Assembly (NCBI GenBank): GCA_016193315.1
Contig: JACPSJ010000001.1
Location: 350,446-404,722 of the forward strand
Length of the DNA: 54,277 nt
From: Candidatus Kerfeldbacteria bacterium
GTDB taxonomy: Bacteria; Patescibacteriota; Patescibacteriia; SBBC01; CAIJZX01
Direction of reading: 5' to 3'
This document shows, in pieces, positions 21,063-25,460 of the stretch; within the stretch, counting starts at the first letter, position 1; each line of letters starts with the position of its first letter. The position numbers and the translations under genes were made by a program. A model generated the notes under the pieces. It made no database searches. It saw only the letters and a program-made list of their open reading frames with translations, and was not told the DNA's origin.

Positions 21063-22097
21063 ATGCCGGCCCGCCCCATTCGCATCGCCATCAACGGTTT
21101 TGGTCGCATCGGCCGGAACGCTTTCAAGGTGGCCCTCGAGAAACCGGAGCTCGAGGTGGTGGCGATCAACGAACTCGGCAGCCTGGAAGTGATGGCCCAC
21201 CTGCTGCGGTACGACACCGCCTACGGACGATACCGTCGTCAGGTGACGTACGGTCGTGATTGGCTACAAGTCGATGATCGTCGGATTCATTTCCTATCGG
21301 TCAAAGAACCGTCCACCCTGCCCTGGCGGGAGCTGGCGATCGACGTTGTCCTTGAATCAACTGGTCGGTTCACCAATGACGGCGCGGCCAAGGTCCACCT
21401 CGGCGCTGGCGCCAAGCGAGTCATCGTCTCGGCGCCGACCAAGGGCGGAGACATCGCCACCTATCTGATCGGCGTCAATGATGGAGACAATAAAGGTGAC
21501 GGTGTTTTTTCCAACGCCTCCTGCACCACCAACTGCGTGGCGCCAGTGACACGAGTCATCCACCATGAGTTCGGAATTGCCAAAGCGACGATGACCACCG
21601 TCCACTCCTACACCGCCGAGCAGAATCTGGTCGACGGCCCAGTACCGCCGCTCCACCCCGATCTCCGCCGCGCCCGCGCGGCCGCCGAAAACATCGTCCC
21701 CACCACCTCGGGGGCGGCCATCTCGACCGGCGAAGTCCTGCCTGAGTTAAAAGGCAAGTTCGATGGCTACGCCTTGCGTGTGCCGACGCTGGTGGTCTCG
21801 TACACCGATTTCACGTTCCTGACCAAGAAACGGACCACGGTCAAACAGGTGAACGAGGCGTTCAAGCGTTGGTCCGTCCGTCCTGACTTGCAAGGTATCT
21901 TGGCTTACACCGAGGAACCGCTGGTGTCCTCCGACTTCAAGGGCCATCCGGCCTCAGCCATCGTTGACTTGCCGCTGACGAAGGTCATTGACGGCGATTT
22001 AGTTAAAGTGGGGGCGTGGTACGATAACGAGTGGGGCTATTCCAATCGTTACGTCGAGCAAGCCATTATGGTCGGTCGGCAGCTGCTCGGCTCGTAG
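21063..22097 (+). CDS. gap: Type I glyceraldehyde-3-phosphate dehydrogenase
   Basis: INGFGRIGR, SNASCTTNC, WYDNEWGYS. Confidence 0.97.
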   Translation: MPARPIRIAINGFGRIGRNAFKVALEKPELEVVAINELGSLEVMAHLLRYDTAYGRYRRQVTYGRDWLQVDDRRIHFLSVKEPSTLPWRELAIDVVLESTGRFTNDGAAKVHLGAGAKRVIVSAPTKGGDIATYLIGVNDGDNKGDGVFSNASCTTNCVAPVTRVIHHEFGIAKATMTTVHSYTAEQNLVDGPVPPLHPDLRRARAAAENIVPTTSGAAISTGEVLPELKGKFDGYALRVPTLVVSYTDFTFLTKKRTTVKQVNEAFKRWSVRPDLQGILAYTEEPLVSSDFKGHPASAIVDLPLTKVIDGDLVKVGAWYDNEWGYSNRYVEQAIMVGRQLLGS

Positions 22098-22179
22098 CCC
22101 GGCGGCCAATATGGTATACTGAGCGCGAACATATCCCCAGGCCCCGGCGGGCCACCAAAGGCGAAAGGAGGTGATCGGC

Positions 22180-22392
22180 ATGTGGAAATATGAAGTCTCG
22201 TCGCTGGCTAAAGCCTTTTTCTGGTTCGGTTTGGTGAACGGCGTCCTCGCCTTCTGGGTCCAGTACGGTTTTGTCTACCAGACCGGCACCCAACAGCTCT
22301 TCGGTGACCCGGTCTTTCACCTCCTGCTCGGCAGCTTGAGCATGCTGGCTGGCGTTTTCCTCAATACGGAACGGACCAACCGGTTGCTCTAA
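22180..22392 (+). CDS. Small two-TM membrane protein
   Basis: AAAGGAGGTG RBS before the ATG; two hydrophobic segments; followed by a strong hairpin at 22403-22432. Confidence 0.6.
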   Translation: MWKYEVSSLAKAFFWFGLVNGVLAFWVQYGFVYQTGTQQLFGDPVFHLLLGSLSMLAGVFLNTERTNRLL

Positions 22393-22430
22393 TTTCGATA
22401 TTTCGTTTCAGCCGCAGCCGCGGCTGAAAC

Positions 22431-22601
22431 GACCAAGTAGGAGCCGCTCGGTCCGGCAAAGCCTGTGACCTCGCGGCGCCGCTATTCCTAACGCGGCCTC
22501 CCCTTCGACTACGCTCAGGGACGGCCGCGTTTTGAGGAACACCTCCTGGCCAGTGTGATGTGGCAGCCGGACTTGACTGACCAGCTGACACTAGCTTGGC
22601 C
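22431..22601. ncRNA. Candidate ~170-nt rod-shaped ncRNA (6S-like shape) with a REP-like apical hairpin
   Basis: Nested stems CCAAG/CTTGG, GTCCGGC/GCCGGAC, TTCCT/AGGAA, AACGCGGCC/GGCCGCGTT, TCCCC/GGGGA separated by large internal loops. Confidence 0.3.
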
Positions 22602-22619
22602 AGTCGGTTTTGGGGCCGC

Positions 22620-22648
22620 TTGCCAAATCTTTCACTCTCCGCTATCCT
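22620..22648 (+). promoter_or_regulatory. Sigma70-type promoter for the GIY-YIG/tRNA-Glu unit
   Basis: TTGCCA-17bp-TATCCT, 15 nt before a tRNA-Glu 5'-end copy. Confidence 0.55.
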
Positions 22649-22807
22649 GGTCACGTTTTCCATGCCGCCTTCGTCTCCGGCGACGCCCCGCCCAGCGGGG
22701 CTGCCGGACCCGGCTCCGCCGGGTAGGCCGGTCGACTTGTCTGGCTACGCTAGGAGCAACAAGTTCTTCCACAAAGCAGGGCGGGCTCCGGTCGAGCACC
22801 TTTTCCC

Positions 22808-23083
22808 ATGTCCTGTTACGTTTACGTCATTAGAAGTATCCGTTTCAAACGGCTATACTATGGTAGCTGTGAAAACCTGCCAAATCGTTTAGGTCAGCAT
22901 AATGCAGGACAAGTTCGATCTACGAGGCCGTATCGACCATGGGAGCTAATCCGAACGGAAGAATTCAAAACCAGAGGTGAGGCTCGGAAGAGAGAACAAC
23001 AACTAAAGCGGTCGGGGGTCGCAAGGAAACAGCTGAAACGAGATCCAAGTAAGTACGTGCCGCCATCGTCTAGCCCGGCCTAG
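22808..23083 (+). CDS. Standalone GIY-YIG nuclease (YhbQ/Slx1-like)
   Basis: YVYVI...LYYG.....R..QHN.G...T...RPW.L...E.F....A..RE..LK; stop lies inside the tRNA-Glu gene. Confidence 0.88.
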   Translation: MSCYVYVIRSIRFKRLYYGSCENLPNRLGQHNAGQVRSTRPYRPWELIRTEEFKTRGEARKREQQLKRSGVARKQLKRDPSKYVPPSSSPA

Positions 23084-23136
23084 GACACATGGTTCTCAGC
23101 CATGGAACTGGGGTTCGAATCCCCATGGCGGTACCA
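23059..23136 (+). tRNA. tRNA-Glu(CTC)
   Basis: GCCGCCA/TGGCGGT acceptor, CATGG-TTCTCAG-CCATG anticodon arm, GGGG-TTCGAAT-CCCC T arm, encoded CCA. Confidence 0.93.
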
Positions 23137-23185
23137 CCAATGTATTCGAAGTGAGTGACTTCGAAGTAACCTCATGCGAAGTAGA

Positions 23186-23298
23186 GTGCCGGGATTCGAA
23201 GGGCAGGAGTGAGGGCGAACGAAGCGAAGCCCGAACGTCCGGCGAGGCGCCGGTGGCGCGTCGCCGCTGCCCAGGATCGAATCCCCATGGCGGTACCA
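23186..23298 (+). repeat. tRNA 3'-linked hairpin element ending in a 22-bp exact duplicate of the tRNA-Glu 3' end (family T)
   Basis: 23277-23298 equals 23115-23136; antisense GGGATTCGAA; GGGCAG/CTGCCC stem; GCGCCGGTGGCGC hairpin. Confidence 0.8.
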
Positions 23299-23424
23299 AT
23301 TGGGAAATGAGCGAAAATCGGCCGCGCTCGACCACCCGATTTTCGCTTCGTAGCCGAGTTCTCTCCCTTTGCGCCCGTTTGGGGCGCGGGCGAACGCGGG
23401 CTTTTTTCTCCGTAACCCAAAACT

Positions 23425-23622
23425 ATGAAATACTATCTCTATGCTAGAAAATCCACCGAGGAAGACTCACAACAAGTGCTTAGTATTGAAGCCCAACTTG
23501 TTGAATTGAAAGAATTTGCCGCCAAAGAAAAACTTGTCACCGCCAGCGGGCGGGATCCCGCCTTCATTAGATCTTTGAATCAAAGTGGCGGGAAAATCGT
23601 CACTTCGCTTCGCTCAGTGTAA
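23425..23622 (+). pseudogene. N-terminal fragment of a serine recombinase
   Basis: YARKSTEE..Q..SIEAQ..EL catalytic motif; similarity ends at a TCCCGCC..GGCGGGA hairpin. Confidence 0.8.
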
Positions 23623-23782
23623 ACTTCAAGGCGCGCCCTCCCTCGACGCGGCTCGGAACAGGCGCGGGCGGCGGCTCGGAAAGTCCTAGTCAGGAGATCA
23701 AGAGACGGGTGAGTTGAGCCGGGCCTTGACCGGAACACACAAAATGCTATTCTGTATCAGTGGTCATAGTTCTCAATTCCCT

Positions 23783-24055
23783 ATGCCTCAACCTCCGGCC
23801 GCGAAAGACGACCTGACGAAACTCGGCTCGCGCCTTGATGGAATAATCCAACATCAAACCCGGGGACTCATCGCCCACTTCAACCAGAGTCAAGCAACGC
23901 AGACGGAATGGATCAAGGGGGAGGTTGACAAGGTCCACGTCGAACCTGAGGCGATCAAGGAATTGTTGGCCTGGCGGCAGGAACTCCAGAATCTGGTCCG
24001 CGAAATCAAATCCCATGGCCTGGCGCTTGATGAATCGAAGATCTTCAATACTTGA
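23783..24055 (+). CDS. Hypothetical coiled-coil protein
   Basis: ATG after a pyrimidine-rich leader; helical heptad-like composition. Confidence 0.55.
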   Translation: MPQPPAAKDDLTKLGSRLDGIIQHQTRGLIAHFNQSQATQTEWIKGEVDKVHVEPEAIKELLAWRQELQNLVREIKSHGLALDESKIFNT

Positions 24056-24128
24056 TCAGCTGCTGATCAGCGGACACAACAAAGGCGGATAAGAAAACGA
24101 GCCAGCCGCGCTAGCCCGTAAAGAGTCG

Positions 24129-24683
24129 TTACCAAGCGGTCATGATCTGACCGTCTTCGGTGATTTGGATTTGCGGCCGGCGCGTCGGATGCAGCTGGTA
24201 GTAGAGGGCGATCTTGGCCCGCATCCGTTTCAGGCCGTTGCGAATGAACGTCTTGGCCCAATCCCGGCCGGCGCGCGTGGCGGCCGGGAGAACTGCATGG
24301 CTCAGCCCAGTCAGCGAGACTCGACTCCGTCCGCGCCGTGCGGCGGCCACCACATGTTCCATAATGGCGGCTGCGGTGACACGCTCTCGACCGTGGAACC
24401 GGGTCGGGATCTTCGGTTGGAAGAGCATGGCCTGGAGATGTTCGAGCTCGGCCAGCACTGCTGGGCGCTGGTCGGCCGAAAAACCCTCCTGGAAAACGCC
24501 GCTGGCCACTCCACCCGCAGTCACTCCAGGATCGACACCGATCGTCCGCTGAACCGCCAGGCGCTCATCGGCGGTCAAGTTCTTCAGTATCGTCGGGATG
24601 AGCCTGACTCGACTGTCCGGTGTCAGCCCCCGCCACAGGATGACTAAGGCGCGTTCAGCCGGCGTTACACCCATGCTGGTCAT
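24129..24683 (-). CDS. Hypothetical protein
   Basis: AAGGAGGA RBS before the ATG; 184-aa ORF. Confidence 0.55.
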   Translation of the reverse strand: MTSMGVTPAERALVILWRGLTPDSRVRLIPTILKNLTADERLAVQRTIGVDPGVTAGGVASGVFQEGFSADQRPAVLAELEHLQAMLFQPKIPTRFHGRERVTAAAIMEHVVAAARRGRSRVSLTGLSHAVLPAATRAGRDWAKTFIRNGLKRMRAKIALYYQLHPTRRPQIQITEDGQIMTAW

Positions 24684-24911
24684 TCCTCCTTTCGGCCTAG
24701 AATGTGCGTTCAGACGCTAGCAGAGTCTGAGACCATGGTCAAGCCCAGCACCACTTTTGCCGGTGATTTCCTTAGTGGCGCCAGCGCCGCGGATGTCACA
24801 GTTTCCAATGTAAGAGAAAGAGAGGGAGTTCATCGGCGGCAAAAGTGGTGCTGGATCAAAGCCTGGCCGTTCCGTTGCGCCTGGTTTCTTGCTATACTAT
24901 CCACAGTCTTT

Positions 24912-25460
24912 ATGCCTCGCCGCACACTCATCCTGGTGGTCGCCCTGGTCGCCGTCCTGGCCGGCGCCGGTGTTTGGTGGTGGTTCAACCAGGACCAGGT
25001 CAGCGACTTCCTCAATCCACCCACTAATTCTGGGTCGGCAAATACTAGTACCACCGTCAGCAACACCAATCGCCCGCCGGTCAATGCCAGCTTGGCAACC
25101 GAATTGAAAGGCGATGTCGAGATCGACAAGACGGTCAAAATCAACGACGTCGAAGTTCACTTTTCCAGTCTGTCCAAACTTGATTCGTTCGCCGGTCAGC
25201 CGGCCGGGGAGAAGAAAGTTTTTCTGATCGTTTTCTTCGATCCGGTTCAAAGTGGCCAGGTTGAAGCGGTCCAACGCGGGTTACAGAAGGACGTTACCCT
25301 CCATTACAGCGGCGGAGTGTCTCCGCTGGCAAGTTTAAAAATAGCCAGTACCGTGGTGGCCAACGACCGTGGCTATCTGAAGTTCGTCCTGCCAAGTGAC
25401 GCCAGTAACATGGTCTTGGGCATCGGCGCGGCGAACGAACAGTACCAGCTGCCCCTCTAG
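24912..25460 (+). CDS. Membrane-anchored exported protein with an N/T-rich linker
   Basis: TATACT upstream; MPRR plus a TM helix, then a beta-rich domain. Confidence 0.65.
   Translation: MPRRTLILVVALVAVLAGAGVWWWFNQDQVSDFLNPPTNSGSANTSTTVSNTNRPPVNASLATELKGDVEIDKTVKINDVEVHFSSLSKLDSFAGQPAGEKKVFLIVFFDPVQSGQVEAVQRGLQKDVTLHYSGGVSPLASLKIASTVVANDRGYLKFVLPSDASNMVLGIGAANEQYQLPL

Follow-up and report, generated by a model that had tools for sequence, protein, structure and literature searches.

How does the only gene for an essential transfer RNA (tRNA) come to lie behind a small nuclease gene whose reading frame ends within the tRNA itself? This arrangement is found at positions 22620-23136 of a stretch of 54,277 nucleotides (the window, by which we mean this whole stretch; G000:C1:350446-404722) from a Candidatus Kerfeldbacteria bacterium, a member of the Candidate Phyla Radiation (CPR). 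The genome it belongs to, G000, comprises 1.15 Mb in 6 contigs, has a G+C content of 57.6%, is 96% complete and carries 48 tRNA genes, amongst which the tRNA-Glu(CTC) gene at 23059-23136 is the sole one for its anticodon. The explanation we favour, with moderate confidence, is that a selfish cassette, homing-like and associated with hairpins, occupies 22664-23058, where it is nested in the tRNA-Glu(CTC) transcription unit, and that cassettes of this kind replace tRNA genes. The locus consists of the following parts:

22620-22648, + strand: promoter-like sequence TTGCCA-17-TATCCT, the only + strand consensus match in 22100-23700
22664-22676, + strand: stub, a copy of tRNA-Glu positions 1-13 (GCCGCCtTCGTCT), 12/13 identical, or 13/14 with the preceding T
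22677-22724, + strand: two tandem GC-rich hairpins in the centroid fold, conserved across cassettes
22808-23083, + strand: single-domain GIY-YIG nuclease gene of 91 amino acids (Pfam PF01541, E 2.1e-15)
23059-23136, + strand: intact tRNA-Glu(CTC) gene with encoded CCA (ARAGORN; Rfam RF00005, 51.2 bits)

An initial annotation of this DNA had listed a promoter, a repeat, hairpins, the nuclease gene and the tRNA, and every one of these features was recovered in its place by ARAGORN, Rfam, Pfam, a repeat search and folding. The repeat consists of TGCCGCCTTCGTCT (22663-22676) and TGCCGCCATCGTCT (23058-23071), which match at 13/14 positions and are spaced 395 nt apart. Allowing at most one mismatch, the 14-mer of the tRNA start has just two sites in the window, where shuffled sequences lead one to expect 0.02 (both strands, 54 kb), and in 0 of 100 shuffles did it occur twice. 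At its 3' end the nuclease open reading frame (ORF) overlaps the tRNA gene by 25 nt; the last 8 residues of the protein are encoded by the tRNA, and the stop codon is the TAG of its D-loop. Hairpin 1 (22677-22707) is built from the nested stems CCGGC/GCCGG and GCCCCGC/GCGGGGC, and hairpin 2 (22708-22724) is ACCCGGC-TCC-GCCGGGT. As the leader (22664-22807, 144 nt) reaches a fold z-score of merely -1.64, with 11 of 200 shuffles folding equally well, the support for these hairpins comes from their conservation across cassettes and not from folding energy. A degenerate continuation of the stub past the hairpins (22727-22767 against tRNA positions 1-38) was rejected, its alignment score of 22 being reached by 312 of 2000 shuffles, and so was an intron or split-tRNA reading, as the outer pieces lack the tRNA middle and the inner gene is complete. 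Shine-Dalgarno-like 4-mers precede just 58 of the 402 long ORFs (with a crude choice of starts), and since they are this rare genome-wide, their absence before the nuclease genes is uninformative.

To find the corresponding locus in relatives, 21 genomes of the order were searched with the tRNA sequence and then, by tblastn, with the proteins encoded on either side. The order of GAPDH, a small membrane protein, tRNA-Glu(CTC) and a homologue of the window ORF at 24702 (orf252) is conserved, and 18 syntenic tRNA-Glu(CTC) loci were obtained, window included, with one extra locus at a contig start excluded. At 3 of the 18 a GIY-YIG gene lies between the membrane-protein gene and the tRNA, namely in G000 (the window), G010 (74% identity) and G013 (47%). 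The other 15 are gene-less, and 11 of these show no flanking tRNA piece at the score threshold (at one of the 11, the downstream sequence covers just 77 nt). Amongst the gene-less loci, G001 carries a scar composed of tRNA positions 1-12, a hairpin, positions 13-38, a double hairpin and the intact tRNA, G003 and G007 carry a 3' piece alone, behind a structured insert, and G011 has a weak scar recognised by eye only. The clean sites feature a promoter-like TTGCC(A/G)...TA(C/G)ACT 12-20 nt ahead of tRNA position 1, the same arrangement that precedes the stub in the window. Presence and absence of the nuclease gene are thus polymorphic at a conserved site (3/18 against 11 clean), and 22664-23058 is an insertion relative to most relatives. 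That the segment is inserted had been claimed in the initial annotation together with the proposal to search relatives for loci lacking it; this claim stood, as the gene is not fixed, empty sites exist, and the repeat recurs in G010 with a junction identical to that of the window, ATCGTCT running directly into CCGGCG after tRNA position 13. As a separate observation, the orientation of tRNA-Glu(CTC) and its promoter with respect to the same flanking genes varies (L047, L049, L052, L055 and L061 against L040, L042, L048, L050, L051 and L053), and in G010 the entire cassette is inverted, together with its tRNA, relative to the window.

The cassette is a member of a family found at tRNA and tmRNA (transfer-messenger RNA) genes throughout this CPR lineage. 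Genome G000 has six GIY-YIG matches, one in a 649-residue frame that is presumably UvrC and five in small genes, all five of which adjoin stable-RNA genes. The frames of three small genes enter tRNA-Glu(CTC), tRNA-Glu(TTC) and tRNA-Gln(CTG), the fourth gene starts ~185 nt past tRNA-Pro(CGG), and the fifth starts 162 nt past the tmRNA gene (G000:C1:787534-788357; ATG at 788100). The interval between tmRNA and nuclease gene holds four or five GC hairpins with ACCTGG-like words between them, and no duplicated tmRNA piece was found within 900 nt. By rough arithmetic, with 48 tRNA genes in 1.15 Mb, the chance of such a tRNA-adjacent position is well under 1% per gene. In relatives the protein family is multi-copy, with matches in 39 of 41 genomes (40 relatives and G000). 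A survey of small GIY-YIG genes against tRNA 5' ends, as suggested with the initial annotation, returned a same-strand tRNA starting at most 30 nt from the ORF stop at 17 of the 29 loci examined in relatives, which are the best matches per genome (for one of them the contig ends within the tRNA), and the corresponding layout at 3 of the 5 loci in G000. At 4 further relatives' loci the tRNA lies just upstream of the ORF, bringing those beside a tRNA to 21/29, and the remaining 8 have no tRNA in the available stretch, which in several cases is short. The adjoining tRNAs are of the types Glu, Gln, Ser, Ala, Asn, Leu, Asp, His, Tyr and Thr.

For broader samples, loci were found by peptide patterns, which for the species genomes came from the window's single protein. 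In the species-genome sample an adjacent same-strand tRNA is present at 8 of 22 loci, including records of Bacteroidota, Omnitrophota and Caulobacteraceae, with none at the 8 Kordiimonas records; in the metagenome sample it is present at 7 of 33. The association with tRNA genes is weaker than in close relatives, yet present. Since the metagenome scan yielded no relative above 54% identity, it gives no evidence of recent transfer.

The members of this family share a common anatomy. Most have, immediately ahead of the ORF, a stub that repeats the 5' part of the tRNA concerned. This stub comprises positions 1-35 at L036 (35/35 identical), positions 1-34 at L031 (34/34) and, at L033, positions 1-25 followed by a hairpin and positions 26-32; elsewhere in G000 it comprises positions 7-38 of tRNA-Glu(TTC) and 1-15 of tRNA-Gln. 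The stub ends span ~position 10 to 38, often falling in the anticodon loop, and one or two GC-rich hairpins follow. In nine Glu cassettes, including that of the window, these form a tandem pair of the type (T)CCGGC(C)-loop-G(G)CCGG(A), which is found in the same place in the gene-less G001 scar; in the tRNA-Glu(TTC) copy the pairing is kept and the letters are changed. In AT-rich relatives the palindrome CCTGCCTGCCGGCAGGCAGG recurs within tRNA remnants, and at the tRNA-Gln locus of G000 the insert has a perfect 14-nt inverted repeat at its ends. Within 400 nt of tRNA genes, GC-rich perfect hairpins are enriched only about threefold (32 against 10.9 expected). On the right-hand side, 20 cassettes abut a tRNA; in 13 of these the stop codon lies within the tRNA gene, amongst them all nine Glu cassettes with the same D-loop TAG, and in the other 7 it lies 4-29 nt ahead of the tRNA; 3' tRNA pieces occur downstream at several cassette loci. 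The initial annotation had described a 395-bp unit that is bracketed by two 5' ends and targets the tRNA 5' end. This part of its interpretation needs correcting, as stubs end at positions 10-38, 3' pieces occur as well, and outer and inner alleles differ in G010 and G013.

Two side observations concern the same structures. At L031 (G021:C52) a tandem 372-nt unit, made up of the tRNA-Gln stub (1-34), the palindrome, positions 35-54 and the GIY-YIG gene, stands ahead of an intact tRNA-Gln(TTG), the tandem copies being identical in the compared parts. In the window, further strong hairpins lie upstream of the tRNA promoter at 22403-22432 (13-bp perfect stem) and 22490-22531 (15-bp stem, 87%); situated between the small membrane-protein gene and the promoter, they may be terminators or more hairpin elements.

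Where does the intact tRNA gene behind the nuclease gene come from? In G010 the inner tRNA matches the empty-site allele of G005 at 74/75 positions and the allele of the congener G007 at 61/78, whereas the 29-nt 3' piece downstream matches the G007/G006 allele at 28/29 positions and its own inner tRNA at 20/29. The stub of G010 is likewise closer to G007 (12/13) than to the inner tRNA (10/13), and its promoter-leader shares 21 identical nt with G007. The 38-nt stub of G013 matches the G007 allele at 36/38 positions and its own inner tRNA at 31/38, and its stem is one found in working alleles elsewhere. Since the outer pieces and the intact inner tRNA differ in allele in both genomes, the cassette seems to arrive with its own copy of the tRNA; we conclude that at several loci the outer pieces are remains of an older resident gene, and that the intact gene came in with the insert. 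In G000, tRNA-Thr(GGT) and tRNA-Thr(CGT) each lie within a split gene of another allele, with its 5' half on one side and its 3' half on the other; the outer halves have acceptor strands that pair with one another and show compensatory changes relative to the inner gene, and short inverted repeats, CCTGCCCGCC ... GGCAGGCGGGG, are found at the joints. Altogether 33 of the 48 tRNA genes of this genome have a partial self-copy within 600 nt (ungapped score of at least 12), with 1 match in total in the reversed-flank control. A few of the 33 are neighbouring paralogous tRNAs (Ala/Ala, Asn/Asn, Ser/Ser), and the majority are isolated 5' pieces on the upstream side and 3' pieces on the downstream side, the two nested tRNA-Thr genes amongst them.

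The protein encoded by the cassette matches the Pfam GIY-YIG family PF01541 over residues 3-69 with 57.2 bits, against a cut-off of 22.6. Residues Y6, G19, R27, H31, N32, G34, T39, P44, R62, E63 and K67 are invariant in 15 relatives, and Y17 is conserved in at least 90%; as active-site residues of GIY-YIG enzymes we take the Tyr of GIY, the Tyr and Gly of YIG, the Arg, the His/Asn and the Glu. The AlphaFold2 model, with a predicted local distance difference test score (pLDDT) of 88.9 and a predicted template-modelling score (pTM) of 0.75, is confident over residues 1-70. Foldseek matched it to UPF0213, Slx1, HIGLE, I-TevI and UvrC N-terminal domains, with TMq 0.60-0.66 for BH0048 and the Slx1 nuclease domain (30-40% identity) and ~0.43 for I-TevI and UvrC. 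Amongst proteins of solved structure, those closest in sequence are EF2693 and BH0048, both UPF0213 proteins, and Slx1. NCBIfam returned no family for the 4 small GIY-YIG proteins tested, and PHROGs no match for the window's nuclease. The closest named relative for this gene is found in a Candidatus Kerfeldbacteria metagenome-assembled genome, with 74% protein identity. As nonsynonymous divergence from G010 (pN 0.159) is well below synonymous divergence (pS 0.76), the nuclease is kept by purifying selection. It is also tied to the type of tRNA: in a tree of 33 proteins, 8 of 9 Glu-linked ones fall in one clade (SH-aLRT 86), the Glu label requiring 2 changes against a shuffled mean of 8.0 (0 of 500 shuffles as low), and the other four G000 copies lie elsewhere.

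These features suggest how such a cassette could be expressed and could spread. It would consist of the double GC hairpin and the Slx1/UPF0213-like nuclease gene, with the stub on the original promoter to its left and the complete tRNA-Glu(CTC) to its right. Because there is a single promoter-like site on the + strand and a single tRNA-Glu(CTC) gene, we infer co-transcription: the ancestral tRNA-Glu promoter would now drive stub, hairpins, nuclease gene and tRNA, and the essential tRNA would be made from one long precursor, running from the promoter through stub, hairpins and nuclease mRNA to the tRNA, from which RNase P would release it. The use of the tRNA promoter had been proposed in the initial annotation and is a sound inference, given that no other + strand promoter-like site precedes the tRNA. 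Both the RNase P RNA gene and the tmRNA gene are present in G000. From the overlap of the two genes it is plausible that RNase P cleavage would strip the nuclease mRNA of its stop codon and so limit expression; this is not a general feature of the family, since the frame ends before the tRNA in 7 of the 20 cassettes. Less certainly, the nuclease might nick or cut DNA at hairpin or cloverleaf structures, the hairpins, in single-stranded or extruded form, probably being the structures that it recognises or cleaves. The cassette might then be copied along with its tRNA, either during repair or by recombination with DNA entering the cell, the tRNA segments providing homology. With a complete tRNA travelling along, the resident gene could be split or partly replaced with no loss of function, and stubs and 3' pieces of older alleles would remain. 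Going further, these cassettes might constitute a new class of mobile DNA, i.e. a hairpin-bounded unit whose sole protein is a bare GIY-YIG domain, which enters the loops of tRNA and tmRNA genes by way of hairpins in single-stranded or extruded DNA, brings a functional replacement for the tRNA that it destroys and drives continual horizontal tRNA replacement in CPR bacteria; we put this forward as a tentative proposal that we would not yet expect to hold in full.

Downstream of the tRNA a second set of features is found, to which the following copies elsewhere in the genome have been added:

23137-23276, + strand: spacer and mini-element E, which folds and is repeated after other tRNA genes
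23277-23298, + strand: copy of the tRNA 3' end from T-loop to CCA, 22 nt exact (2 matches, 0.00 expected)
23425-23622, + strand: serine recombinase remnant, N-terminal ~35 residues recognisable, outside the cassette
G000:C5:72734-72819, C1:160929-161006, C1:560187-560226, C1:696882-696967, C1:83737-83810 and C4:32449-32491: other copies of E

The last 22 nt of the tRNA (TCGAATCCCCATGGCGGTACCA) recur 140 nt beyond its end, a repeat that is absent from the initial annotation. In the E region in between, 23145-23165 forms a hairpin and 23191-23200 a pseudo T-arm (GGGATTCGAA), followed at 23201-23276 by a Y-shaped core, in which GGGCAG, a hairpin, a second hairpin (CGGCGA...TCGCCG), CTGCCC and AGGA follow one another and which folds with a z-score of -3.73 (0 of 200 shuffles as good). 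The stretch is 88% identical to its equivalent after tRNA-Glu(TTC), and when the two Glu copies are compared, the pairing of the second hairpin is preserved by two compensatory changes. A BLAST search of G000 with 23184-23276 gave 8 matches including itself, all located 50-210 nt downstream of tRNA genes and on the strand of the tRNA. Seven genes precede them, those for Glu-CTC, Glu-TTC, Arg-TCG, Gly-CCC, Trp (two pieces), Lys-CTT and Met, and at most of these a copy of the tRNA's own 3' end, starting in the T-loop, is found at ~+140. In G003 and G007, which both lack the nuclease gene, tRNA-Glu(CTC) is likewise followed by an E-like insert and a repeat of the tRNA 3' end. Because E copies follow at least seven tRNA genes and E-like inserts occur in these two genomes without the nuclease gene, E and the 3' repeat are an event separate from the GIY-YIG cassette; we propose that E behaves as a second, independent and nuclease-less mini-element that targets tRNA loops.

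The DNA beyond E is extended as well, with ~1.56 kb between the window tRNA and the orf252 homologue (24702) as compared to ~35-310 nt in relatives. The recombinase remnant scores 21.7 bits with Pfam Resolvase (cut-off 23.3), gave 18.5 bits over profile positions 2-34 in a further search, and matches the integrase family phrog_95 with E 4e-5. Together with ORFs at 23714-24055 (+) and 24129-24683 (-), for which Pfam and PHROGs gave no match, it lies within 23299-24701 (~1.4 kb), which is probably decayed integrated DNA. We also inspected contigs of 4 DNA runs from one study, one of these runs being a possible source of the window. In the interval 23334-23531, runs X2 and X3 have contigs that disagree with the window at 21 positions, and a joint between 22729 and 24840 in one contig, with 24 letters on its shorter side, was disregarded as a repeat artefact. 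Elsewhere in the genome, G000:C6:17691-18131 gives a full Resolvase-domain match within a 495-residue frame (a large serine recombinase), ~1 kb from tRNA-Leu(TAG) (C6:16624-16709), and may mark a conventional integrated element.

Several observations weigh against a selfish, homing-like cassette that carries its own tRNA. Site-specific homing enzymes normally have a DNA-binding domain, and neither Pfam nor the AlphaFold2 model reveals a second Pfam domain or a DNA-binding domain in the 91-residue protein. In the window itself the stub differs from the inner tRNA at 1/13 positions and the 3' piece is identical to it, so that the argument for an imported tRNA draws on loci elsewhere, such as those of G010 and G013. 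In G010 the inner tRNA is the same allele as one at an empty site, and there is no hint of a cleavage-resistant tRNA variant of the sort that classical homing predicts. Nor does nuclease similarity follow tRNA-allele similarity, the window tRNA being no closer to those of G010 and G013 than to empty-site alleles. With 74% identity and saturated synonymous sites, the window and G010 copies are old and give no sign of recent transfer. The loci in the protein tree are best matches to a Glu-linked query, a choice that favours clustering by label. Finally, across 21900-25000 none of the contigs of the 4 DNA runs bridges an empty allele in the population sampled; the cassette is unchanged in them, and no movement was observed.

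How do other explanations fare by comparison? The two near-identical copies in the window (13/14), exactly 395 nt apart, together with the same junction in G010 and the lack of a foreign-allele outer 3' piece at the window, would be accounted for by a minimal 395-bp element of hairpins and nuclease gene that has no tRNA of its own, the first 13-14 nt being a target-site duplication. Such a duplication should be of fixed length, whereas the stubs vary between ~10 and 38 nt and nearly all start at or near tRNA position 1; in G010 and G013, moreover, the stub allele differs from the inner tRNA, and G010 retains the 3' piece of another allele. We therefore consider the minimal element unlikely, though of the alternatives it is the one that deserves most attention. 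Less probable still is that the gene serves the host. Single-domain GIY-YIG proteins of the cd10448 type, the Ssn enzymes, cut single-stranded DNA at hairpin repeats flanking their own genes, according to the available part of the study (Chenal et al., 2025, PMC11893778), and the window's nuclease might correspondingly act on genomic hairpin repeats in DNA uptake or repair, with tRNA genes as strongly transcribed and tolerated landing places. Its single domain, its SsnA-like size and the hairpins beside the gene agree with that account (PMC11893778), as do purifying selection and the small GIY-YIG genes in 39/41 related genomes. What speaks against a host function is that the SRM motif of Ssn is absent at the locus and unenriched in the genome (0 matches in 22300-23700; 11 genome-wide; contig C1 has 7, where 5 first-order Markov simulations gave 2-9), that presence at a given tRNA gene is patchy amongst close relatives, and that dead tRNA pieces flank the gene, which a simple host gene would not create.

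We give very little credence to the idea that the locus is debris of an integrase-borne island at this tRNA and the GIY-YIG gene a leftover passenger. The duplicated tRNA 3' end, the serine recombinase remnant and the ~1.5 kb of extra DNA downstream might be read in this way, but the nuclease gene lies between promoter and tRNA with a 5' duplication, which integrases do not make, the same layout of gene and tRNA is found at 20 loci without integrases, and the 3' duplication is part of element E, which follows 7 tRNA genes. Within 22664-23058 there is no integrase, and the part duplicated there is the 5' end.

If the selfish, tRNA-replacing cassette is the correct explanation, tRNA genes of ultra-small bacteria would be sites of continuous invasion and not quiet housekeeping loci, and whole tRNA alleles would appear to be swapped between lineages. 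The sole gene for an essential tRNA would be expressed through a selfish nuclease gene that ends inside it, thousands of uncharacterised single-domain GIY-YIG proteins would gain a testable function, and a nuclease of 91 residues, whose target is presumably defined by structure or sequence, could become a possible tool.

Full-text literature searches did not find a description of GIY-YIG cassettes nested in bacterial tRNA genes; the small tRNA-colonising nuclease elements of ultra-small bacteria form a family that is widespread and, as it appears, undescribed. Enzymes of the SegB type are encoded by phage genes and carry a DNA-binding domain. As far as the accessible text goes, SegB and other free-standing GIY-YIG homing genes of T-even phages are similar to the cassette in that the nuclease gene lies amongst or against tRNA genes, is patchy in relatives and is presumed to spread with flanking tRNA sequence by recombination (PMC2330249). 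Unlike SegB, the window protein is a bare 91-residue catalytic domain, encoded on a CPR chromosome and accompanied by hairpins and duplicated tRNA pieces. The Ssn proteins share with it the single GIY-YIG domain, the size of ~90 residues (Ssn ~94, window 91) and the hairpins beside the gene; going by the portion available, Ssn is the only biochemically characterised model for such proteins, and the word "tRNA" does not occur in the main text (PMC11893778). We use Ssn as the best model of how the enzyme may act, by analogy, and not as a family assignment. In tRNA-dependent lysogeny of mycobacteriophages, in the part of the report available, whole temperate phages integrate with a tyrosine integrase and a ~10-bp core (Guerrero-Bustamante and Hatfull, 2024, PMC10865867). 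In contrast, the unit in the window is a few hundred bases long, brings a GIY-YIG nuclease and hairpins, and has the replacement tRNA inside the broken gene.

Slx1 differs from the window protein in having a zinc-finger domain and a partner, Slx4. It cleaves DNA that is branched or forms stem-loops, and this would fit an enzyme tied to hairpins. For bacterial UPF0213 proteins, we know of no function or link to tRNA in the titles of their PDB entries. Slx1 and UPF0213 proteins (COG2827-type; PDB 6seh, 7cq2, 4xlg, 1zg2, 1ywl) are the closest sequence and fold matches of the window protein, whose fold is nearer to theirs (TMq 0.60-0.66) than to that of I-TevI (0.43).

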